A stretch of 64,000 nt of DNA, taken from the NCBI GenBank assembly GCA_964016885.1, contig OZ024741.1:81964001-82028000 (forward strand), read 5' to 3'. Below, one piece after another: positions 27,864-64,000 of the stretch. The DNA is from Eledone cirrhosa (Eukaryota). A program made the translations under genes and the position numbers. The stretch's first letter is position 1. Each line of letters opens with the position of its first letter. Below the pieces are notes generated by a model, which did not search any database, had not been told where the DNA came from, and saw only the letters and a list, made by a program, of their open reading frames with translations.

Positions 27864-28980
27864 ATTAGAATTGGTGCTCTGAAATAGCGATATATATATG
27901 AATGTATATATAGTGTATTTTGCAATACACTGTATGCTTAATTAAAAGCATTTCGAAGACCTTACGCTATTGTTTTAGAATAGTGACAGTCTCCCTTACT
28001 TTAATTTTCAGCAAACAGGGGAGATAAAGCTGACGGAGCTCTGTTTCGCACTTTTTGGTGCTTATCAAAGCTAACTACTCCTCCTGTTTGCTGAAAATCA
28101 TGAATGTTTGATTCTTATAGAATTCTAGTAATAATCAGGAACTGGTTATACAGAGCGGTTGGCGGTCAAGCAGAAATTGAAAATTAGAATTGGTGCTCTG
28201 AAATAGCGATATATATATATGAATGTATTTATAGTGTATTTTGCAATACACTGTATGCTTAATTAAAAGCATTTCAAAGAACCTTACGCTATTGTTTTAG
28301 AGTAGTGACAGTCTCACTTACTTTAATTTTCAGCAAACAGGGGAGATAAAGCTGACAGAGCTCTGTATAATCAGTTCCTGATTATTACTTGAATTCTATA
28401 AGAATCAAACATTCATGATTTTCAGCAAACAGGAGGAGTAGTTAGCTTTGATAAGCACCAAAAAGTGCGAATCAGAGCTCTGTCAGCCTTATCTCCCCTG
28501 TTTGCTGAAAATTAAAGTAAGAAAGACTGTCACTATTCTGTTTGCTGAAAATTAAAGTAAGTGAGACTGTCACTACTCTAAAACAATAGCGTAAGGTCTT
28601 CGAAATGCTTTTAATTAAGCATACAGTGTATTGCAAAATACACTATATATACATTAATATATATACCGCTATTTCAGAGCACCAATTCTAATTTTCAATT
28701 TCTGCTTGACCGGCAACCGCTCTGTATAATCAGTTCCTGATTATTACTAGAATTCTAAAAAAATTAAACATTCATGATTTTCAGCAAACAGGAGGAGTAG
28801 TTAGCTTTGATAAGTACCATAAAGTGCGAAACAGAGCTCTGTCAGCTTTATCTCCCCTGTTTGCTGAAAATTAAATTAAGTGAGACTGTCACTACTCTAA
28901 AACAATAGCGTAAGGTCTTCGAAATGCTTTTAATTAAGCATACAGTGTATTGCAAAATACACTATATATACATTCATATA
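27864..28980. mobile_element. Retrozyme-like inverted tandem array, about 319-bp monomer, with U3-A8 hammerheads
   Basis: About 1.6 units minus then about 1.8 units plus; HHR agct TTGATAA gtac cataaa gtgc GAAA cagagctctg TC agct at 28803-28847, further copies 28444-28488 (+) and 28028-28072 (-). Confidence 0.85.
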
Positions 28981-29186
28981 TATATATATATATATATATA
29001 TAACCTTACACACTTAAATATAAATGCATGTATATATACAAATGTATAAATGAATAGCTATATACATACGTAAATGTATATATGTATATGTGTATGTATG
29101 TATGTAGATTTATATATATATATGTATGGATGTAGATTTATATATATATATATGTAGATTTATATATATATATATATATATATATT

Positions 29187-40160: not shown

Positions 40161-40221
40161 TTTCATTCTGATGATTGAAAGCAAAATTTGTTTGCTTTCA
40201 AGAAACCACTGGTAAATGAAA
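40161..40221 (+). ncRNA. Canonical type I hammerhead inside the 40008-40250 fold-back
   Basis: tttcatt CTGATGA ttgaaagcaaa atttg tttgctttcaa GAAA ccactgg TA aatgaaa; the inverted copy at about 40027-40095 has lost part of helix II/GAAA. Confidence 0.85.
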
Positions 40222-48424: not shown

Positions 48425-48512
<88 letters not shown>

Positions 48513-49127
48513 ATAAAAAACAACAATACAATATAATTACCTCATTAACAGAGGTTTCCCGAATAAGGCGAATACGAAAGAAACGTCTTCATTCGTTCGT
48601 CGGACGAGGCAATACAAAACATAGCTAAATATTTGGAAAGTCTCCTCAAGAAATGCAAAAAAAATTATGTAAATATAGGTGAAGGTAATACAATAGACAT
48701 ATAAAACATATAAAAATGTTTTTAAGAAATATAGTTAGGTGTGTGTATATGTATGTACATACACTCACTGATGTACATATGTATGTATGTACAAATGTGT
48801 GTGTATAGTGAAACTGTGTGCGTAAATATATATATGAGGGTAAGTATCTACAGACAGAGACATGAATGTCCAGTTGACAGATACACAGAAAAAAGGGTAT
48901 TAGATACATTATAAGAATATGAAGGCACGCGTATAAACACACACACGCGCGCGTACACTTATATGCGGAAGAAAAAGAGGTAAGGGAGTGTAATAGTAAA
49001 AAGAAAGTATCATTCTCGATATATTTATAAAAATGGAACAATCATTTAGAAAGAAAATTGCAAAGTAAAGAAAACAAACAAGGTACACGCGTACATACAC
49101 ACATATCTATAAGAAACGTATATCTAT

Positions 49128-49182
<55 letters not shown>

Positions 49183-49799
49183 GCAAAACGTGCAGACAAA
49201 AGCGTATGTAAGTATACATACGCACACAGGATGCACACATATACATACACATCGCCCCATGCATATCTAATCACGCGTACGTACGCGACTGTATACTCAC
49301 ACACATACACACACATTAATATATACATACATATATACATACGCGCACTTACACATCCATACATTCAGTACGTACACACACACATACACACATACATACA
49401 CTCACGCACGTTGACCCGCTTACATGCGCACACATAAAAATAAGAATGTAAACAAATAGATGTAAAAACACAGATATAAAAACACACACACATACACATA
49501 TATATACACACGTACGCGCGCGCACATACGGAGGCGTTCGTGTACATATACAGAAAGTATACACACATAAAGACGCTCAGACACATAGATATAGGGTGTA
49601 ACAACGGCCTTGTGAATAAGTGAGTATAAATATAAAAAAATATAAGAATGGCTGCGAAATAACAGAAAATATCTGAGGTGGAAAACGCAAGTGACTTCCG
49701 TAATCAGGTAGTGAAGAAAATAGGGAAGTAAAAAGTGGAAAGTGAAGATATTATATAAGTGAATCAGAGAATACAGGGGGGGGTTGTGGTGGATGTGAA

Positions 49800-50195
49800 G
49801 TAAAAATAAGAATAAAAATAAAAATAAAAATAAAAATAAAAATAAAAATAAAAATAAAAATAAAAATAAAAATAAAAATAAAAATAAAAATAAAAATAAA
49901 AATAAAAATAAAAATAAAAATAAAAATAAAAATAAAAATAAAAATAAAAAAAAAATAAAAAAAAAAATAAAAATAAAAATAAAAATAAAAATAAAAATAA
50001 AAATAATAAAAATAAAAATAAAAATAAAAATAAAAAAAATAAAAAAAAAATAAAAATAAAATTAAAAATAAAAATAAAAATAAAAATAAAAATAAAAATA
50101 AAAATAAAAATAAAAATAAAAATAAAAATAAAAATAAAAATAAAAATAAAAATAAAAATAAAAATAAAAATAAAAATAAAAATAAAAATAAAAAA

Positions 50196-50226
<31 letters not shown>

Positions 50227-50382
50227 TAAAAATTAAAATTAAAATTAAAATTAAAATTAAAATAAAAATAAAAAATAAAAATAAAAAAAATAAAAATAAA
50301 AATAAAAATAAAAATAAAAATAAAAATAAATATAAAAATAAAAATAAAAATAAAAATAAAAATAAAAATAAAAATAATTAAA

Positions 50383-50413
<31 letters not shown>

Positions 50414-50637
50414 TAAAAATAAAAATAAAAATAAAAATAAAAATAAAAATAAAAATAAAAATAAAAATAAAAATAAAAATAAAAATAAAAATAAAAATAA
50501 AATTAAAAATAAAAATAAAAATAAAAATAAAAATAAAAATAAAAATAAAAATAAAAATAAAAATAAAAATAAAAATAAAAATAAAAATAAAAATAAAAAT
50601 AAAAATAAAAATAAAAATAAAAATAAAAATAAAAATG
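49800..50637 (+). repeat. (AAAAAT)n tract inside pLTR; mirrored by (TTTTTA)n at about 52455-52922
   Basis: Direct reading; about 840 vs about 470 bp. Confidence 0.97.
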
Positions 50638-50704
50638 AAATTAATAATAAGGTTAAAAATGAAAGTAAATCAGAAAAGGTAGTCTTAAAGAGAATAATAA
50701 GAGC

Positions 50705-52013
50705 TTATGGAGGATAAGTATCTGAAAGTGTGTTAAGTTTATATGAGCTGGAAAGCAGGTGTGATTTCATGTGTGGGCAACTGGTGAAAATTTCTGTCTT
50801 TGTGTTTAGGCAGGTCTTAGGTGATTTAAGGTTTTGCAAAATCCAATATTTTTCATTTATACAGAGCGTGCATTTTCTTGTTCCTCTTGCATATTCTTTA
50901 GATTGGTTCAAAATTGACCAATCCAATTTATATTGGATACCTTGGTCTTTCAAATCCCATATTCTGCTAGCCAGAGCTGTTGTAAATGCGACATGTGATT
51001 AATAACGCGTTTTGAATTTGTCTTGCGTCATACCGACATATCGTTCACTGGTGGATGGTTGGTTGTTGCTGATGATTGTCACTTTAGCCTCATATACAAT
51101 GGCTTTGGTGTTGGATTAACCTTGTAATGTGCATTCACTTTTGACTCTACAGGAGCAATTTTGATGTTCTCTAGGTGATTTTTTGTTGATTATATAAGAT
51201 TTAATAGGGGGAGCTAATTTTGACACATGTGTTCTGGGGAAATGTTTATCTAAGATCTCTAGGAATGTTTTGCCTACATTAGTTTTAACTGCTAGAGAGT
51301 AGGGGTGTGTGTACCAGATTATTTTTCTTTTCCTGTTTTTATGTTTAATAGAGTTAGTATAGTTGGGTATGTATTTAATCGATTCGCTAAAACCGCTATT
51401 TTGGAGGGCTTTATCATAGTAGGTGGATGGCTTTTTGAAAATAGCTTCTGAGGAAGAGAGGGTGGAGATCCTACGGCTAATATTAGGGATAAGGTTTTTA
51501 AAAACTATAGGAGGATAGCGAGAGCCTATATTTATATATTTTAAGTTTTCATTAGGTTTATGGTATGGTTTATAAGAAGCAGTAGGCAAATCTAGGTTTA
51601 TATCTAGGAAATTTACATTGGAAAGATTAGTGTCAATAGTAATTTTAAGATTAAAACTAGCAAAGGTTTTTATTAAGTCTTTCCTTAATCTATCTAAGTT
51701 ATGGTGGTATGGGAAAGTATTAGACCATCGTCGCGATAAAGCTAAAAAATATGGTTAGGGAATTTTTCTTTAAGTGTGTGTAGGAGGAATAGGCCGACTA
51801 AATCACAAACATCAGCACTATCATAAGAGCCCATTGAGACATCGAATGGGCTCTCTGGGTTAGATATTTTTACCTAAGTGTCATTATCGGTAAAGAGTAG
51901 AGTGTTTCTAGCGTGCAAGATGACATTCTCTTCAATATCAGAGATATTGGTAAACTTTCTAGCGAAATTTAAAGCTTTCGCTAAAAGAGTCTGAGTGATA
52001 GATGGGTAGAAAG
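50705..52013 (-). pseudogene. Neptune-type PLE reverse transcriptase + GIY-YIG endonuclease, frameshifted
   Basis: FYPSI, FDVSMGSYDSADVCDLVGLFLL, LYRDDGL, VNFLDINLDL, KRKIIWYTHPYS, AIVYEAKV..RYVGMT..FKTRY, CTLCINEK, CPH. Confidence 0.93.
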
Positions 52014-53546
52014 CCACCAGTGAACGATATGTTGGTATGACGCAAGACAAATTCAAAACGCGTTATTACTCACATGTCGCATCCTTTCGACATCCAGAAA
52101 AAAGATTTACAACAGCTCTGGCTAGCAGAATATGGGATTTGAAAGAGCAAGGTATCCAATATAAATTGGATTGGTCAATTTTGAACCAATCTAAAGAATA
52201 TGCAAGAGGAACAAGATAATGCACGCTCTGTATAAATGAAAAATATTGGATTTTGCAAAACCTTAAATCACCAAAGACCTGCCTAAACACAAAGACAGAA
52301 ATTTTCACCAGTTGCCCACACATGAAATCACAACTGCTTTCCAGCTCATATAAACTTAACACACTTTCAGATACTTATCCTCCATAAGCTCTTATTATTC
52401 TCTTTAAGACTACCTTTTCTGATTTACTTTCATTTTTAACCTTATTATTAATTTCATTTTTATTTTTATTTTTATTTTTATTTTTTTTAATTTCTATTTT
52501 TATTTTTATTTTTATTTTTATTTTTATTTTTATTTTTATTTTTATTTTTATTTTTATTTTTATTTTTATTTTTATTTTTATTTTTATTTTTATTTTTATT
52601 TTTATTTTTATTTTTATTTTTATTTTTATTTTTATTTTTATTTTTATTTTTATTTTTATTTTTATTTTTATTTTTATTTTTATTTTTATTTTTATTTTTT
52701 ATTTTTATTTTTATTTTTATTTTTATTTTTATTTTTATTTTTATTTTTATTTTTATTTTTATTTTTATTTTTATTTTTATTTTTATTTTTATTTTTATTT
52801 TTATTTTTATTTTTATTTTTATTTTTATTTTTATTTTTATTTTTATTTTTATTTTTATTTTTATTTTTATTTTTATTTTTATTTTTATTTTTATTTTTAT
52901 TTTTATTTTTATTTTTATTTTTACTTCACATCCACCACTAACCCCGCCCCTTTATTCTCTGATTCACTTACCTAATATCTTCACTTTCCACTTTTTACTT
53001 CTCCATTTTCTTCACGACCTCATTACGGAAGTCACTTGCGTTTTCCACTCTAGATATTTTCTGTTATTTCGCAGCCATTCTTATATTTTTTTATATTTGT
53101 ACTCACTTATTCACAAGGCCGTTTTTACACCCTATATCTATGTGTCTGAGCGTCTTTATGTGTGTATACTTTCTGTATATGTACACGTACGCCTCCGTAT
53201 GTGCGCGCGCGTGCGTGTGTATATATATATGTGCATGTGTGTGTTTTTTATATCTGTGTTTTTACATCTATTTTTTTACATTCTTATTTTTATGTGTGCG
53301 CATGTAAGCGGGTCAACGTGCGTGAGTGTATGTATGTGTGTGTGTGTGTACGTACTGAATGTATGGATGAGTAAGTGTGCGTATGTATATATGTATGTAT
53401 ATATTAATGTGTGTGTATGTGTGTGTGAGTATACAGTCGCGTACGTACGCGTGATTAGATATACATGGGGCGAGGTGTATGTATGTATATGTGTGCATCC
53501 TGTGTGTGTATGTATACTTACATACGCTTTTGTCTGCACGTTTTGC

Positions 53547-53587
<41 letters not shown>

Positions 53588-54119
53588 ATAGATATGCGTT
53601 TCTTGTAGATATATGTGTGTATGTACGCGTGTACCTTGTTTGTTTTCTTTACTTTGCAATTTTCTTTCTAAATGATTGTTCCATTTTTATAAATATATCG
53701 AGAATGATACTTTCTTTTTACTATTACACTCCCTTATCTCTTTTTCTTCCGCATATAAGTGTAAGCGTGCGTGTGTGTGTTTATACGCGTACCTTCATAT
53801 TCTTATAATGTATCTAATACCCTGTTTTTCTGTGTATCTGTCAATTGGACATTCATGTCTGTGTCTGTAGATACTTACCCTCATATATATATTTACGCAA
53901 ACATTTTCACTATACACACACATTTGTACATACATACATATGTACATCAGTGAGTGTATATACATACATATACACACACCTAACTATATTTCTTAAACAA
54001 ATTTTTATGTTTTATATGTCTATTGTATTACCTTCACCTATATTTACATAATTTTTTTTGCATTTCTTGAGGATAATTTTTGCATTTCTTGAGGAGACAA
54101 ATATTTAGCTATGTTTTAT

Positions 54120-54197
54120 ATTGCCTCGTCCGACGAACGAATGAAGACTTTTCTTTCGTATTCGCCTTATTCGGGAAACCTCTGGTAATGAGGTAAT
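54120..54197 (+). ncRNA. Hammerhead of the Neptune pLTR with U4-to-C core (CCGACGA)
   Basis: attgcctcgt CCGACGA a cgaatgaag...cttattcg g GAAA cctctgg TA atgaggtaat; mirrored at 48536-48613. Confidence 0.7.
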
Positions 54198-54300
54198 TAT
54201 ATTGCATTGTTGTTTTTTATACATACAATTTTGCTCTGGTACTTACATAGAGCACTCTTCACTCCTATGACTTTTTCTGTTTTCAACGAAAACTTCAATA

Positions 54301-54366
<66 letters not shown>

Positions 54367-54566
54367 TGTGTGTGTGTATGTGTATTTATGTGTGTGTATA
54401 TGTATATTTATATATATATATGTATAATTGTGGGTGTGTGTGTGTGTGTGTGTGTGTGTTTATATACCTATTATTTATAATCTTTTTTTTCTTCTTCACT
54501 CAGCCTCACTTTCATATTTCTTATATTTTTGTTTTCAAATCCACTTTCAATAAAAATCCCATTTTT

Positions 54567-54626
54567 TTTCATTCTGACGACTGAAAGCTGATTTGTATAC
54601 TTTCAAGAAACCGCTGGTAAATGAAA
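54567..54626 (+). ncRNA. Type I hammerhead, same family as 40161-40221
   Basis: tttcatt CTGACGA ctgaaag...ctttcaa GAAA ccgctgg TA aatgaaa. Confidence 0.8.
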
Positions 54627-54661
54627 TAATTATCTTATGTTGTTTATTACATAACTATATA

Positions 54662-54752
<91 letters not shown>

Positions 54753-55334
54753 TCTATTATTTATGTCTATATATATATATCGATTTTTACTCGTGTATGT
54801 GAACCACAGGTTGCCAATGGCTTATCCTGAACATGTAACGTGGAAAATCTTTTAATTCATTTTAAAAATGTTATTATAAATTTAGAGGACGGTAGGAGAT
54901 GGGTTTGGAAGAAAGCGTAATTATATACATAAATATATTTACTGTTGAATTTAAATTTATTAACTCCCGAGTTTTTATTATGACTACATCTTAACGACCT
55001 TTACTAATTAAGTTTTAAAACAATTTATTTCGTAATTAATAACATTCCACGTATATAATTTGCTAAAAAATATACTAATCGAAAAAAATTGGAATAAAAT
55101 ATAAATCTGTAAAAAGAATAACGAAACAACGTAAAAACGGTTAATTATATTAAGACGTAAATATTATAAATACGTATATTAAATTTGCCTTAAACAATTA
55201 AAATGATTCATTAGTTTTAATATCTTTCTATTGGTGGGGAAAATACGATAAGTAAAACGAGAGAAAAGAGAAAATTTATGTGTCTAATTTTCAGATTCAA
55301 ACAATTATGTATATAAGTGAATGTGTGTGTGCAA

Positions 55335-55373
<39 letters not shown>

Positions 55374-55380
<7 letters not shown>

Positions 55381-55905
55381 CGTCGTTTAGAAAGCCACAA
55401 CAATGCAGAGGGAAATCTCGAGGTAGGAAGTGAATGATAGATAGGAAAACAGGAGAAAGTGAAAATTGAGAGAGACAAAGATGAAAACAAAACAAAGGTA
55501 GAAGGGTTACCATAGTGGAGATTTAATCCCAATATTTCGGGCTCACGCCCATCAACGGGGGAAAGTTCCAAAGGGGGGGAACAGGCCAAGCGGAGAAAGT
55601 TGTGATGTCGTTAAGACAGGAATGCCGTTTTAACGACATCACAACTTTCTCCGCTTGGCCTGTTCCCCCCTTTTGGAACTTTCCCCCGTTGATGGGCGTG
55701 AGCCCGAAATATTGGGATTAAATCTCCACTACGGTAACCCTTCTACCTTTGTTTTGTTTTCATCTTTGTCTCTCTCAATTTTCACTTTCTCCTGTTTTCC
55801 TATCTATCATTCACTTCCTACCTCGAGATTTCCCTCTGCATTGTTGTGGCTTTCTAAACGACGTATTTTACACATTTCACAATGCTTCAAGCAAACTTTA
55901 ACACC

Positions 55906-55908
<3 letters not shown>
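55374..55908. mobile_element. Young fold-back element (about 244-bp near-identical arms, about 9-nt loop, 38-nt tail) with HHR-like motif
   Basis: Arms 55374-55617 / 55627-55870; tccc CCGTTGA t gggc gtga gccc GAAA ta TT ggga at 55682-55717. Confidence 0.75.
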
Positions 55909-55985
<77 letters not shown>

Positions 55986-56124
55986 AGTATGTATTCGGGC
56001 TGCTCGTTTACAAACAAACCGAACATTATAATAAATGTTCGGTAAACCCATACGTACATATATATAAGATAGTGAGAAATAGAATTTCGTTTCATACTTT
56101 TCCATTTATATATATATATATAAT

Positions 56125-56702
56125 TCGTTTCTGAATTTGTTTAGCAGGATTCTTTATCTGAAAACGTGTGTTGAAACCGATATTGTTATACTTTGTGAGG
56201 GTCATGTTGCCAATAAGAAACACACGCACCAGTAGCTTTCACTCCAATTTATAGAAAACATGAATGGAATAGCAACATCACAACTTTCAATTAAGGACAA
56301 AATGAAAACACACACACATAGAACAAACAACCAACCAGTAACATGTAAATAAACAAATAAATAAACAAATAAAAACACACACACAGACACTCGGATGTAA
56401 CACATGCGCAAACTAAGCACACAACACACACAAAAACAAGATGGCGTAGGATAGAACAAAAGAGAGGCACAAAACAAAGAAAAGAATCCCCAGTCAGTGA
56501 AGAGGTCACAGAATGTGTGACGCAAGACCTTTGACAATATATGAACAACCGTTCGGTTGTGGAACCAAACAACCAACCGGAAATCATTTTTTTTTTTTTA
56601 AATTAAAAACAAAAATGTTTTTAATTTATAATAAATTGGAGTGAAAGCACTGGTGCGTGTGTTTCTTATTGGCAGCATGACCCTCCAAAAGTATAACAAT
56701 AT
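56125..56702. mobile_element. PLE pLTR-like fold-back element (family of 29187-29610), HHR core mutated
   Basis: Shared terminus tttctgaatttgtttagca.gattctttatct; gtca GTGAAGA g gtcac..gtgac GCAA gacc TT tgac at about 56493-56535. Confidence 0.7.
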
Positions 56703-56729
56703 ATATATATAAGATTGGTTACTCATGAA

Positions 56730-56785
<56 letters not shown>

Positions 56786-56787
<2 letters not shown>

Positions 56788-59700
56788 TGGAATAAATGCT
56801 CTGAAATAGCGATATATATGTGAATATAGACATAGAATATTCGAAAATATTCTGTATGTTTATAATAAACATTTTGAAGACCTAATCGCTATAGAATAGA
56901 ATACGTCACGTATTACAATTAGATTCTCGATAAAAGCAAGGGAAGTAATCTACGCGTTTCATTCTCGTTAGAAATCATCAGGACTACATATCCAGTGCTT
57001 TTATCGAGAATGACACAGCTAGAGACTTATAGAATACTTAGCTGTGTACAGGAACTGGTTTGAAAGAGCGGTTGCCGGTCCGGCAGAAATTAGAAATTGG
57101 AATAAATGCTCTGAAATAGCGATATATATGTGAATATAGACATAGAATATTCGAAAATATTCTGTATGTTTATAATAAACATTTTGAAGACCTAATCGCT
57201 ATAGAATAGAATACGTCACGTATTACAATTAGATTCTCGATAAAAGCAAGGGAAGTAATCTACGCGTTTCATTCTCGTTAGAAATCATCAGGACTACATA
57301 TCCAGTGCTTTTATCGAGAATGACACAGCTAGAGACTTATAGAATACTTAGCTGTGTACAGGAACTGGTTTGAAAGAGCGGTTGCCGGTCCGGCAGAAAT
57401 TAGAAATTGGAATAAATGCTCTGAAATAGCGATATATATGTGAATATAGACATAGAATATTCGAAAATATTCTGTATGTTTATAATAAACATTTTGAAGA
57501 CCTAATCGCTATAGAATAGAATATTCTTGCTTTTATCGAGAATCTAATTGTAATACGTGACGTATTCTATTCTATAGCGATTAGGTCTTCAAAATGTTTA
57601 TTATAAACATACAGAATATTTTCGAATATTCTATGTCTATATTCACATATATATCGCTATTTCAGAGCATTTATTCCAATTTCTAATTTCTGCCGGACCG
57701 GCAACCGCTCTTTCAAACCAGTTCCTGTACACAGCTAAGTATTCTATAAGTCTCTAGCTGTGTCATTCTCGATAAAAGCACTGGATATGTAGTCCTGATG
57801 ATTTCTAACGAGAATGAAACGCGTAGATTACTTCCCTTGCTTTTATCGAGAATCTAATTGTAATACGTGACGTATTCTATTCTATAGCGATTAGGTCTTC
57901 AAAATGTTTATTATAAACATACAGAATATTTTCGAATATTCTATGTCTATATTCACATATATATCGCTATTTCAGAGCATTTATTCCAATTTCTAATTTC
58001 TGCCGGACCGGCAACCGCTCTTTCAAACCAGTTCCTGTACACAGCTAAGTATTCTATAAGTCTCTAGCTGTGTCATTCTCGATAAAAGCACTGGATATGT
58101 AGTCCTGATGATTTCTAACGAGAATGAAACGCGTAGATTACTTCCCTTGCTTTTATCGAGAATCTAATTGTAATACGTGACGTATTCTATTCTATAGCGA
58201 TTAGGTCTTCAAAATGTTTATTATAAACATACAGAATATTTTCGAATATTCTATGTCTATATTCACATATATATCGCTATTTCAGAGCATTTATTCCAAT
58301 TTCTAATTTCTGCCGGACCGGCAACCGCTCTTTCAAACCAGTTCCTGTACACAGCTAAGTATTCTATAAGTCTCTAGCTGTGTCATTCTCGATAAAAGCA
58401 CTGGATATGTAGTCCTGATGATTTCTAACGAGAATGAAACGCGTAGATTACTTCCCTTGCTTTTATCGAGAATCTAATTGTAATACGTGACGTATTCTAT
58501 TCTATAGCGATTAGGTCTTCAAAATGTTTATTATAAACATACAGAATATTTTCGAATATTCTATGTCTATATTCACATATATATCGCTATTTCAGAGCAT
58601 TTATTCCAATTTCTAATTTCTGCCGGACCGGCAACCGCTCTTTCAAACCAGTTCCTGTACACAGCTAAGTATTCTATAAGTCTCTAGCTGTGTCATTCTC
58701 GATAAAAGCACTGGATATGTAGTCCTGATGATTTCTAACGAGAATGAAACGCGTAGATTACTTCCCTTGCTTTTATCGAGAATCTAATTGTAATACGTGA
58801 CGTATTCTATTCTATAGCGATTAGGTCTTCAAAATGTTTATTATAAACATACAGAATATTTTCGAATATTCTATGTCTATATTCACATATATATCGCTAT
58901 TTCAGAGCATTTATTCCAATTTCTAATTTCTGCCGGACCGGCAACCGCTCTTTCAAACCAGTTCCTGTACACAGCTAAGTATTCTATAAGTCTCTAGCTG
59001 TGTCATTCTCGATAAAAGCACTGGATATGTAGTCCTGATGATTTCTAACGAGAATGAAACGCGTAGATTACTTCCCTTGCTTTTATCGAGAATCTAATTG
59101 TAATACGTGACGTATTCTATTCTATAGCGATTAGGTCTTCAAAATGTTTATTATAAACATACAGAATATTTTCGAATATTCTATGTCTATATTCACATAT
59201 ATATCGCTATTTCAGAGCATTTATTCCAATTTCTAATTTCTGCCGGACCGGCAACCGCTCTTTCAAACCAGTTCCTGTACACAGCTAAGTATTCTATAAG
59301 TCTCTAGCTGTGTCATTCTCGATAAAAGCACTGGATATGTAGTCCTGATGATTTCTAACGAGAATGAAACGCGTAGATTACTTCCCTTGCTTTTATCGAG
59401 AATCTAATACGTGACGTATTCTATTCTATAGCGATTAGGTCTTCAAAATGTTTATTATAAACATACAGAATATTTTCGAATATTCTATGTCTATATTCAC
59501 ATATATATCGCTATTTCAGAGCATTTATTCCAATTTCTAATTTCTGCCGGACCGGCAACCGCTCTTTCAAACCAGTTCCTGTACACAGCTAAGTATTCTA
59601 TAAGTCTCTAGCTGTGTCATTCTCGATAAAAGCACTGGATATGTAGTCCTGATGATTTCTAACGAGAATGAAACGCGTAGATTACTTCCCTTGCTTTTAT

Positions 59701-60437
59701 CGAGAATCTAATTGTAATACGTGACGTATTCTATTCTATAGCGATTAGGTCTTCAAAATGTTTATTATAAACATACAGAATATTTTCGAATATTCTATGT
59801 CTATATTCACATATATATCGCTATTTCAGAGCATTTATTCCAATTTCTAATTTCTGCCGGACCGGCAACCGCTCTTTCAAACCAGTTCCTGTACACAGCT
59901 AAGTATTCTATAAGTCTCTAGCTGTGTCATTCTCGATAAAAGCACTGGATATGTAGTCCTGATGATTTCTAACGAGAATGAAACGCGTAGATTACTTCCC
60001 TTGCTTTTATCGAGAATCTAATTGTAATACGTGACGTATTCTATTCTATAGCGATTAGGTCTTCAAAATGTTTATTATAAACATACAGAATATTTTCGAA
60101 TATTCTATGTCTATATTCACATATATATCGCTATTTCAGAGCATTTATTCCAATTTCTAATTTCTGCCGGACCGGCAACCGCTCTTTCAAACCAGTTCCT
60201 GTACACAGCTAAGTATTCTATAAGTCTCTAGCTGTGTCATTCTCGATAAAAGCACTGGATATGTAGTCCTGATGATTTCTAACGAGAATGAAACGCGTAG
60301 ATTACTTCCCTTGCTTTTATCGAGAATCTAATTGTAATACGTGACGTATTCTATTCTATAGCGATTAGGTCTTCAAAATGTTTATTATAAACATACAGAA
60401 TATTTTCGAATATTCTATGTCTATATTCACATATATA
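56786..60437. mobile_element. Retrozyme-like satellite: 310-bp monomer, about 2.4 units minus + about 9.4 units plus, one hammerhead per full unit
   Basis: CTGATGA at 57795, 58105, 58415, 58725, 59035, 59345, 59649, 59959, 60269 (+) and 56975-56981, 57285-57291 (-); one 6-bp deletion near 59408; flanked by (TA)n. Confidence 0.92.
57789..57831 (+). ncRNA. Minimal type I hammerhead (representative copy of the 310-bp unit)
   Basis: gtagtc CTGATGA t ttct aacg agaa t GAAA cgcg TA gattac; predicted cleavage after GUA at 57825. Confidence 0.88.
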
Positions 60438-60462
60438 TATATATATATATGTGTGTATGTAA

Positions 60463-60494
<32 letters not shown>

Positions 60495-60497
60495 TGT

Positions 60498-60540
<43 letters not shown>

Positions 60541-60553
60541 TTACATACACACT

Positions 60554-60643
<90 letters not shown>

Positions 60644-60662
60644 CATATATATATATATATAT

Positions 60663-60819
60663 AGCAGGTGAAGCACTGTCCTGGTGAGAGCCAGAGCTCG
60701 AAATGCACATAGGTAGTTGTCCCGCTGGCCTTTCCAAATGTTTATTTATTAAACAAACCGTATAATCTTCAGATAAACGAAATTCAATTACATGTATGCA
60801 TACAGCTATGCCTAGGCAA

Positions 60820-60865
<46 letters not shown>

Positions 60866-61095
60866 TTTTTTCGGTATAGCTGTTTAATAAATAAACATTT
60901 TGAAAGCCCAGCTACCTATGTGCATTTCGAGCTCTGGACAGTGCTTCACCTGCTCTCTGCAGGAACTTGAAACAGGCGAAAATATATAGTTTATCACCAG
61001 TGTAGTAGGGATGATAAGCTCATTTGCATATGAAGCTGTATAAATCGGTTCAACTTAAAAGTAGAATTTGAATTTAGCTTCAGCATAGCTATATA
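60663..61095. mobile_element. Third retrozyme-like family, decayed, inverted arrangement
   Basis: actgtc CTGGTGA gagc caga gctc GAAA tgcaca TA ggtagt at 60675-60717; inverted partial copy about 60883-60955; shares aaatgtttatt..taaaca with the 310-bp unit. Confidence 0.65.
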
Positions 61096-61489
61096 TATAC
61101 ATGCATCTGACTTTCGTAAATGTAAGCCAAACATCGAAATACGCATGGACAGTTGACCCCCGCCGCTTCTGCTGGAATCTGCAAGATAGCGCTGGCCGTC
61201 AGCCTTTCAATATTCATATCACGTTGTTGAGGTGAACATTTCTATATTTGTTTTGATAATTTAAGAAGATAATGAGTTAATAAGATTCTAATGAAAAGTT
61301 CATTGCATTGTTGATTCTGTTGGAGAGTAGTAAACACGCTGGTTTTCGACAATTTTCATCCGTTGTTACCAACTAATTTTCCCCTCTTTTGTATTTCATA
61401 GCTCGAATGGGTGCCAGAAATGTATTAACCCAAAAGCTCGTTAAAACAAAATTGATCTATTGATTTTGTTTTTCATCTTTCTTAGAGAA

Positions 61490-63050
61490 TAAGAAAATAG
61501 AAGCCAAAAAGACAATTTGGCTGCTTGAGAGAAACCCTGAGAGGCAGTTACCTCAGACTCGTCTCCCCTTCAAACTACAAGTGCTCTTTTGTTTTCTTTA
61601 CCATCACGTCGCACTCGGGGAGACAATTTCAGTTGTTGTAAAAACCACTAGCCAGAAGATCCAAGAAGTGTGTGTGTGTGGGGGGGGGGGGGATGCCCCT
61701 ACCTAAACGGAAAACAAAACACCTGCACTTCAATCTAGAAAGAGTGTCAAGGATGAAAAGTAGAAAAGTCAAGGATGACTGATGAAGCAGTTGCAAAGCG
61801 TGAGATATGGAACGGTGATATCACTGACATTTTTGTGATTGCCAGCCAGGCAGTTTTCGACAAAAAATGTCCTGTCTGAAAACAACGCTTTCCTTAAGAC
61901 ACAGCGGGAAGATCGGATGTCTTTATTTCCGGCTAGTGTTGTTCCAGAATATGTGACAGCAATTTAGTTGAAGGAAAAGATGATTCATGATATAAAAATA
62001 AGACAAACAAAGAAGAATGAAGGAGAGATGATGTCCGAGATAGAGCTCTTGAATAGCCGAAATGCAGCTCAGCCATTAATGATCCTGATGATGATGAAAT
62101 CTTCAAGCCAGCACTTCACTGAACATCAACGCAAATAAAGCCGACTCTCGGCGCCACTGTTGTTGTCACAAAAAAAGGTATCGATATGGCAAGCAAGTGT
62201 TTCTCATATCGCAATTGCAAGGATTCTTGATAATGATGTGTCTGAACTCTCCGTTTCCCTCTCAACTGTTTATCGTGCAAGAAAAAGTCACCGAGAGAAG
62301 ATGGCTTAGGAAATCGAGTGAAGACAGGCGCTGGCTAGTTCTCCACTGCGTTAGAGAGTTATTACCATCAGCTTCCTAATCAAGCACATTCGAAGATTGG
62401 AATGACGACTTAATTACAGGAAAAGGAAATAAGGAAACCTTTGATGTTCCGATTGCAAGATAGAACCGGATAACAAATCACTGGTATTATTTTGAAGGAA
62501 ATTAAACGCCTCAAAATTGAGAATATAATAATTGGTATGTCCTTCAACTCCACCGGCAGTAACAGCAGCATGCATCAAGAAGCTAATACGAAAATTGATG
62601 TATCTCGGAAACAATCCCTATTTTAGCAGGCTTGCCGCCATCACATTCTTCAACTGGTTTTGAAGAAAGTATTCGAGATCTTTTTTCGCATTATCCGGTC
62701 CCGGAATCCGAAAGTTACAAACGTTCCAGGAACGTTGGACTCCATTGATTAGTCTCATTATCAATCTATCCCGTGCGATGATGAGCCAGTACAAGATTTT
62801 TATAAACAAAAGAGAGGGGAGGTCGTTGAAAATCTACTGACTACTGTTTTCTGGAGATTATTACCTAGAAGAATATGCTGAGTTCATAAAGCTCTCCCTT
62901 CTCTATCCTGATGGTCGGTTATCTTCCCAGTACCCCAGCAGCTTGCCATCAGGCTCGTTGGATGGCTAAGACCATATATATGAACAGATAATTATGTTCA
63001 AAGAACAACTTAAGCTTACACCACGTGTGTCGAACGTGTTTCACGCTTTA
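61490..63050 (+). pseudogene. Highly decayed hATm-like transposase
   Basis: RLPFKLQVLFCFLYHH, GMSFNSTGSN (cf. CFDTTASNTG), ACRHHILQLVL, HQARWMAKTIY. Confidence 0.75.
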
Positions 63051-64000
63051 CCTCACAAGTTATTGTATATTTTGAATGTCTTCTTTCTGCTTATTTCCAT
63101 TTTATTTATCTACTTATTAACATCTCGAAAAGTGTCGCATGGGACACAGAGATCTGTTTCGGGTGATAGATTTCATCCATACAAAGTATTTCTTTATTTA
63201 ACCCTAATATTATTGTGTATTTAGAATATATTCCACCTGCTTATTTTCATTTGATTTTGTTCTGTTGCGTGGTTTCCTCATTGGATACATTAATATGATC
63301 AGAAAAGACAATATACCAGTGGTCAGGTCCAAACGATGATTCTAAATATGTGAAACTGTGCAACCCTTAGATATTACTCGGCATTCATCGTTATTTAATT
63401 AATTCAAACACGGTCGTAATGAATATGAAGTGACTGGCGATCAGTTTGGAAAATAGAACATCTTAACTTACATAGATACATAGATAGAAAGATACATGGA
63501 TACATGCATACATACATATAGGCATACATATATACATATTTATATTGCATACATACATACTTACATAAATATATATATATATACATTCATACAAAAATAC
63601 ATACATACACAAATACATACATTGGATGCATCTCAGTTTTGAGAATTGCAATCCCTAGGTCGTTTCTTCATACACGGGTGCCACAAAGATGACGTTTTAA
63701 CCGTAGACAGTATTCTGCATATGCTGCATTGAAAGAAAAACGAAACAGTCATGCTCACGCAACACACGTAAAAGTTAATTATATCAATTGTTATCTGTGT
63801 TTGAAGATTTATTAAGTGAAGATAGGTCATGCACTTGACCAATTCCACTCTCTGAACAAGGGTGACAATATTCAAAAACAAGAACAGTTCAACATCATTC
63901 GCAGATTTTACACTAGTTTTCCATCTATTAGACAGATTCCTTAACACGAACTAGAGGTCTTTCACTCCCAGTGGGCTAATCTCGCACTCGGGTACCAAAA

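Follow-up and report, generated by a model that had tools for sequence, protein, structure and literature searches.

The tandem array considered here lies in a 64,000-nt stretch of contig OZ024741.1 of Eledone cirrhosa (hereafter the window, meaning the whole stretch analysed). It is probably, at about 0.7, the product of one insertion of a non-coding 310-nt hammerhead retrozyme, in which the reverse transcriptase (RT)-endonuclease of a Penelope-like element (PLE) cut (TA)n and both DNA ends served as primers on a single monomer RNA that is likely circular. Directly observed in this family are outer ends at two fixed sites, with one end of either kind in each insertion, inner ends that scatter, a haplotype shared by the arms and microhomology at the joints. 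Its significance lies in the family-level mechanism, not in the coincidence that the strand switch of the window array falls near the predicted ribozyme cut.

In the window array the 310-bp units are arranged back-to-back in a minus arm and a plus arm, with (TA)n tracts on both sides (Table 1). The sequence of arm B is identical to a multimer of the unit (exact match), and arm A carries a single 6-nt deletion near 59405. Unit position 1 is the first base past the predicted cut between GUA and GAUUAC. An earlier note on this DNA let the minus arm stop at 57523 and the plus arm start at 57526, 10 nt past the predicted cut; these coordinates hold, with the plus-arm start ambiguous (unit 11-13) because of the palindrome at the joint. 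The plus arm indeed terminates in the ATATATAT tract and is followed by (TA)n, and the minus arm is 26 nt longer, where about 25 nt had been claimed. This excess, mentioned there only in passing, is the real signal. The joint AGAATATTCT likely consists of a 4-nt snap-back insertion plus CT microhomology. Other inverted-repeat elements adjoin the array (56180-56252 / 56631-56702 and 60666-60955), and the first of them also flanks two other loci, L041 and L058.

Table 1. Features of the window array, in window positions
Feature	Position	Strand	Remarks
Left (TA)n target tract	56733..56785	.	
Arm B	56786..57523	-	inner end at unit 48, outer end at unit 165 (tailed site B); length 738 nt or 2.38 units
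26-nt 'tail', unit 140-165	56786..56811	-	this array end only
Hammerhead core, arm B	56951..56981	-	second copy 57261-57291
Inversion joint, palindrome AGAATATTCT	57518..57527	.	TT sits between the arms
Arm A	57526..60438	+	inner end at unit 11, outer end at unit 139 (site A); length 2,913 nt or 9.40 units
Extension of helix I, 16 bp, unit 250-265 with 13-28	57765..57853	+	
Stem I of first arm-A core	57789-57794 with 57826-57831	+	
First of nine arm-A cores, CTGATGA..GAAACGCGTA	57795..57825	+	predicted cut after 57825
Site A, ATATATAT tract, unit 132-139	60431..60438	+	complementary to (TA)n target
Right (TA)n-rich target tract	60439..60663	.	

Each unit (310 bp, GC about 35%) contains a minimal type I hammerhead. 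Its elements are CTGATGA, a short helix II with a basal U-U, GAAAC, helix III formed by the palindrome ACGCGT, the GTA triplet and a stem I of 6 bp that is extended by a further 16 bp. Eleven such cores are present in the window array. The assignment is based on core motif, stems and variants; Rfam returned 40 matches at E<=1 over positions 50000-64000, none of them to a hammerhead family. Across 144 loci the catalytic core shows no variants except at N7. The recurrent stem variants 20G, 259G, 260G, 2G, 276G, 277A and 287A all retain pairing as read from the fold, several of them only as G-U wobbles on the hammerhead strand, while the private variant 14T disrupts one pair, a pattern suggestive of RNA-level selection. 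No open reading frame of at least 130 aa occurs inside the array and the unit is non-coding; the RT plus GIY-YIG frame of an autonomous PLE is absent from it. Judged from its sequence, the element is a non-LTR retrozyme on every feature examined, namely a tandem, low-GC, non-coding unit with a length inside the range of about 150-450 bp, at least two consecutive type I hammerheads and dispersal.

The family is large. Exact core matches number 4,204 in the 3.0-Gb genome, and the retrozyme is dispersed and multi-copy, with more than 1,000 insertions that form near-unmutated records of a young family; when the complete unit was used as a DNA query against the genome, no matches were returned, likely because common words were skipped. 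We fetched 173 loci plus two extensions (10 by core, 85 by A end and 78 by B end, as defined below), all from C1 and part of C2 and all but 10 chosen via one end, and mapped them with locus-specific units. After removal of duplicates (L089, contained in L090, and duplicate events in L048 and L195) the set comprised 150 two-armed events, the window array among them. Another 27 arms appeared single, although several conceal a very short second arm. The end classes leave out four events truncated at the limits of the fetched sequence as well as L185, which contains an N gap. L188 was moved by eye from A+A to B+A, as a variant at 139 had halted the parser and the arm continues to about 159, and L213, with arms 252 nt apart, was excluded as an event. 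An older subfamily of the unit was seen at about 300-1000 of L160, inside the TA tract of a PLE 3' region. Compared with window positions 57400-58300, sequencing runs X1 and X2, which bear different organism labels and give no library type, each yielded one 340-base contig (unit plus 30) of the window haplotype, and run X3 yielded 610 pieces with joints at scattered places.

The outer ends of the arms fall into two classes, A (unit 125-139) and B (about 153-172). All 145 scorable two-armed events combine one A with one B end (66 AB and 79 BA, one reassigned by eye), and so do 9/9 of the loci that were chosen regardless of their ends. Genome-wide, 1,006 B ends are found at 165 and 1,214 A ends at two positions (497 at 139 and 717 at 130), a number that bears out the proposal of the ATATATAT end as a fixed priming site. 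The B end lies about 26-35 nt beyond the A end, mostly at 165, and a tail, typically of 26-35 nt, is present at one end only in 145/145 events. Site A is the ATATATAT tract and can pair with the (TA)n target; site B has only AT in common with it. A TA run of at least 6 nt follows immediately past 138/148 A ends and 137/144 B ends. Candidates for target-site duplications were found in 12/146 events, mostly as simple repeats in (TA)n context. The clearest is L032 (G000:C1:15431500-15440500), where about 40 nt of flank sequence occur on both sides, possibly a long target-site duplication. The one-sided tail, the inverted arm and the TA runs beside both ends agree with the PLE-style insertion in (TA)n that had been suggested for the window array, and the outer-end tail, by our comparison, matches the Penelope 'tail', for which 30-40 nt at one end was taken as the criterion.

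The haplotypes of the arms provide insight into the template. In 122 of 124 loci both arms agree at all 17 recurrent sites, against 12.8% between loci, and 52 haplotypes occur in the 144 fully covered loci. A further 22 private variants are fixed lap after lap, in one arm as in the other, and single-lap minority alleles are unshared between the arms in 114 cases and shared in register in 7 (two loci). No indel was observed at the 310/1 joint in 1,416 passes across the cut site. The shared haplotype, the fixed private variants and the lack of indels point to a one-unit, apparently closed template that would have been copied independently from both ends; rolling-circle copying, as previously suggested for the long arm, is thus favoured by the haplotype data, here of a monomer circle. 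The available text of PMC7229834 (Cervera & de la Pena 2020) reports that axolotl motifs with a weak palindromic helix III cleave better as dimers. As helix III is similarly weak here, a monomer circle of the 310-nt unit would be stable. An RNAcofold run with two hammerheads gave a swapped dimer in which the active fold is not clear, and it was excluded from the evidence.

A few loci depart from this pattern. L103 (G000:C1:136717483-136726483) and L054 display an identical haplotype series in both arms, counted from the priming end, with two laps of one type and then another. These in-register mosaics likely stem from a multimeric template or a joint template switch; they speak against a monomer circle and suggest that some events, at the least, used a multimeric template. 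The alleles of L082 and L106 are discordant between the arms. In J056 (G000:C1:97460500-97477500) and L078, which are among the longest arrays, variants are periodic at 27 and 7 units. This may be due either to later tandem duplication or to an assembly effect, the former meaning that some arrays grew after insertion.

The mosaics would fit two-ended PLE priming on a linear multimer that had been transcribed from an array already in place and had not been cleaved. Such a template would also agree with unprocessed RNA as the main in vitro substrate of the Anolis PLE (available text of PMC11167929), with the eight of nine Xenopus dimers left uncleaved (available text of Li et al., bioRxiv 10.64898/2026.07.22.740005) and with the weak helix III, owing to which cleavage may be slow. 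Donor singletons, however, should then recur in register, which they do in only two loci against 114 unshared alleles, and the 22 all-lap private variants need a one-unit bottleneck, though one may have occurred in unsampled donors. We consider a linear multimer unlikely as the usual template. The one-unit bottleneck would follow as well from a linear self-cleaved monomer, its ends held by stem I, on which the RT jumps from the 5' end to the RNA's own 3' end in each lap. Insertions after unit position 2, which are recurrent haplotype variants in 12/144 loci, count in its favour. RT jumps usually leave scars, so the clean 310/1 joint (0 indels in 1,416 passes) counts against this template; likewise there is no excess of stops at position 1, and we regard it as very unlikely.

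Alternatively, the arrays may have grown after insertion by unequal exchange, or one arm may be a fold-back copy of the other, with gene conversion equalising the two. Later growth finds some expression in the periodic variants of J056 and L078, but single-lap differences are not shared between the arms and more than 1,000 dispersed loci retain exact RT-type ends. Under fold-back, one of the two arm classes should in no case be the longer one; in fact, A surpasses B by more than one unit in 49/145 events, and B surpasses A by as much in 59/145. Since either arm may be much the longer, fold-back is excluded, and the combined explanation is, in our view, highly improbable. This variation, together with the correlation between the two arm lengths (rho 0.28, p 0.0006), counts in favour of two-ended copying.

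In the earlier note the strand switch was tied to the ribozyme: the RT would have reached the 5' end of a self-cleaved multimer, and the switch would mark the cut. The window plus arm, which begins 10 nt past the cut, agrees with this, but neither of the two locus sets nor the genome-wide counts show any enrichment there. The 149 other events supply 298 inner ends. Distances of up to 5 nt from the cut were found for 9 of them (9.6 expected), of up to 10 nt for 18 (19.2 expected) and of up to 15 nt for 25 (28.8 expected). Ends within 10 nt made up 11/208 in the first set (13.4 expected) and, before one duplicate was removed, 8/92 in the second (5.9 expected), which was fetched only after the tests had been written down. 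An end as close to the cut as that of the window is present in 16/149 loci (20.4 expected; about 14% by chance). The inner ends occupy 177 distinct unit positions, so that inversion points are scattered across the whole unit, an outcome that the earlier note itself had named as contrary to its proposal.

Genome-wide, arms start 5 times at position 1, 16 times at 11 and 16 times at the control position 192, counts that come from three patterns of unequal sensitivity (a not-T/not-A flank and the position-2 variants lower the count at position 1; roughly 13 vs 23 after rough correction) and that therefore show no excess at the cut, not a depletion. Arms that end at the cut and continue into TA number 0, as opposed to 1,214 and 1,006 at the two real sites, which disfavours a linear, fully self-cleaved template. 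The window switch within 10 nt of the predicted cut is chance, and we give hardly any credence to a switch that marks the cleavage site.

A mild excess of inner ends falls in the first half of the unit (175 vs 123; Rayleigh p 0.005, 10-bin chi-square p 0.06). The skew of the first set, centred near position 67, is not significant when corrected for passes (p 0.40), and an apparent stop cluster noticed post hoc at unit 13-40 was not replicated in the new loci (10/104 vs 9.4 expected). Of 146 simple joints, 98 have microhomology, 16 are blunt and 32 contain inserts. Microhomology thus accounts for 98/114 of the joints without insert, against 47% for random pairs, and long inserts are mostly copied from unit sequence nearby. 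We take this pattern to resemble polymerase theta-type joining.

Two-ended copying of a one-unit RNA circle, for which the circle itself, its cleavage and the partner enzyme are inferred from sequence patterns, may have proceeded as follows. An array would be transcribed, adjacent minimal hammerheads would cut as dimers, and the monomer would be ligated. A PLE would cut (TA)n, upon which one DNA end could anneal to site A, the AUAUAUAU tract at unit 130-139, while the second could start about 26-35 nt downstream (site B, mostly 165, with a 2-nt pairing). By strand displacement, each RT would then go repeatedly around the circle and end synthesis at random positions, and the two cDNA ends would be joined through microhomology-mediated end joining. 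The strand switch in the window would accordingly be the place where both cDNAs stopped. As a further step, to which we give even odds, a dimeric Penelope-type RT may act on one RNA circle, with its active sites loaded at two fixed points about 30 nt apart, one for each DNA end, and with two rolling-circle cDNAs made simultaneously on the same molecule. If so, programmed double priming would account for the PLE tail and the inverted copy in general, and the arrays would document, for the first time in a genome, that a ribozyme circle is retrotransposed by a two-ended rolling-circle process.

Two-ended priming has a parallel in the twin priming of L1 elements, in which both target ends prime and an inverted segment is joined by microhomology. 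In L1, however, the internal position of the second primer varies and the two cDNAs represent neighbouring stretches of the RNA, whereas here both sites are fixed and both arms repeat the same sequence. Closer similarities exist to EN+ PLEs (Poseidon PAc, PMC11167929; Hydra/Naiad, PMC8557442), for which the available text describes a 5'-truncated inverted copy, a one-sided tail of about 30 nt, two internal RT starts downstream of the hammerhead and (TA)n targets. According to the accessible part of PMC8557442 the PLE tail is often one-sided, beside an inverted truncated copy, in (TA)n; that of PMC11167929 ties the tail to two internal RT starts and has the protein, a predicted dimer, cut and extend both strands. 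In contrast to those elements, the retrozyme lacks an ORF, and in each of its arms a single unit is repeated over many laps. Its site A shows complementarity to the target, which the start sites of PAc, being non-homologous, do not, and each insertion has one A and one B end, whereas the start site of the Anolis PLE in vitro, where unprocessed RNA was used, shows no strand difference (PMC11167929, as far as available).

The animal non-LTR retrozymes described in the available text of PMC7229834 and bioRxiv 10.64898/2026.07.22.740005 likewise have a non-coding, low-GC tandem unit of about 300 bp with one type I hammerhead per unit, and PLEs co-occur with them; the axolotl motifs share the weak palindromic helix III and the U-U at the base of helix II. 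Unlike the retrozymes in these texts, the present insertions are back-to-back two-armed arrays with fixed asymmetric ends, and the word 'inverted' is absent from PMC7229834 in the form available. Both sources, in the parts at hand, propose PLE mobilisation and circle templates without end-by-end evidence, so that movement of animal retrozymes is proposed but not shown, and PMC8557442, again in part, calls the way in which PLEs make tandem, inverted and tailed insertions undefined. More than 1,000 records governed by a strict rule, namely one end of each class, a single haplotype and stops at random, bear on both questions, which become directly testable in vitro with a 310-nt RNA and a (TA)n target. 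Neither obligate A+B pairing nor two-armed rolling-circle retrozyme arrays were described in the literature that a search covered; older papers on Penelope structure and the bioRxiv supplements were outside its scope.

PLEs are abundant in the genome, where a first look gave 45,686 candidates. One family has long open frames of up to 719 aa with the RWK, DKT, CxCx5C, CxxC and CxH marks of the Hydra clade, and a Pfam search of a 715-aa PLE frame gave no match. No PLE partner that shares sequence with the unit was found among the matches listed, in about 1.2 Mb of fetched loci plus the flanks of 30 loci of one PLE family. The window itself contains a decayed coding copy of this family (RT plus GIY-YIG, Hydra-like), inserted in (TA)n at 48510-54300 as two inverted arms. 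Each arm carries an expanded (TAAAAA)n, one of the two has a tail of about 78 nt, and a motif resembling a hammerhead is located near 54125-54195. The copy has no sequence in common with the 310-nt unit.

Further elements in the window are of a similar kind. A related family of two-armed retrozymes is represented at 27864-28987. Its identity to the unit is about 75-78% over positions 59-235, its hammerhead core was recognised by eye as of the U3-A8 type, and its ends obey the same rule, one lying in an ATATAT tract and the other being tailed. Hammerhead-type motifs of another family occur at 40168-40214 and 54575-54625 (the second by eye). A short two-armed element occupies 55376-55909 within (TA)n. 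Its right arm bears a tail of about 40 nt, and a hammerhead-like motif is found near 55690-55715; its perfect hairpin explains the miRNA matches that Rfam reports there.
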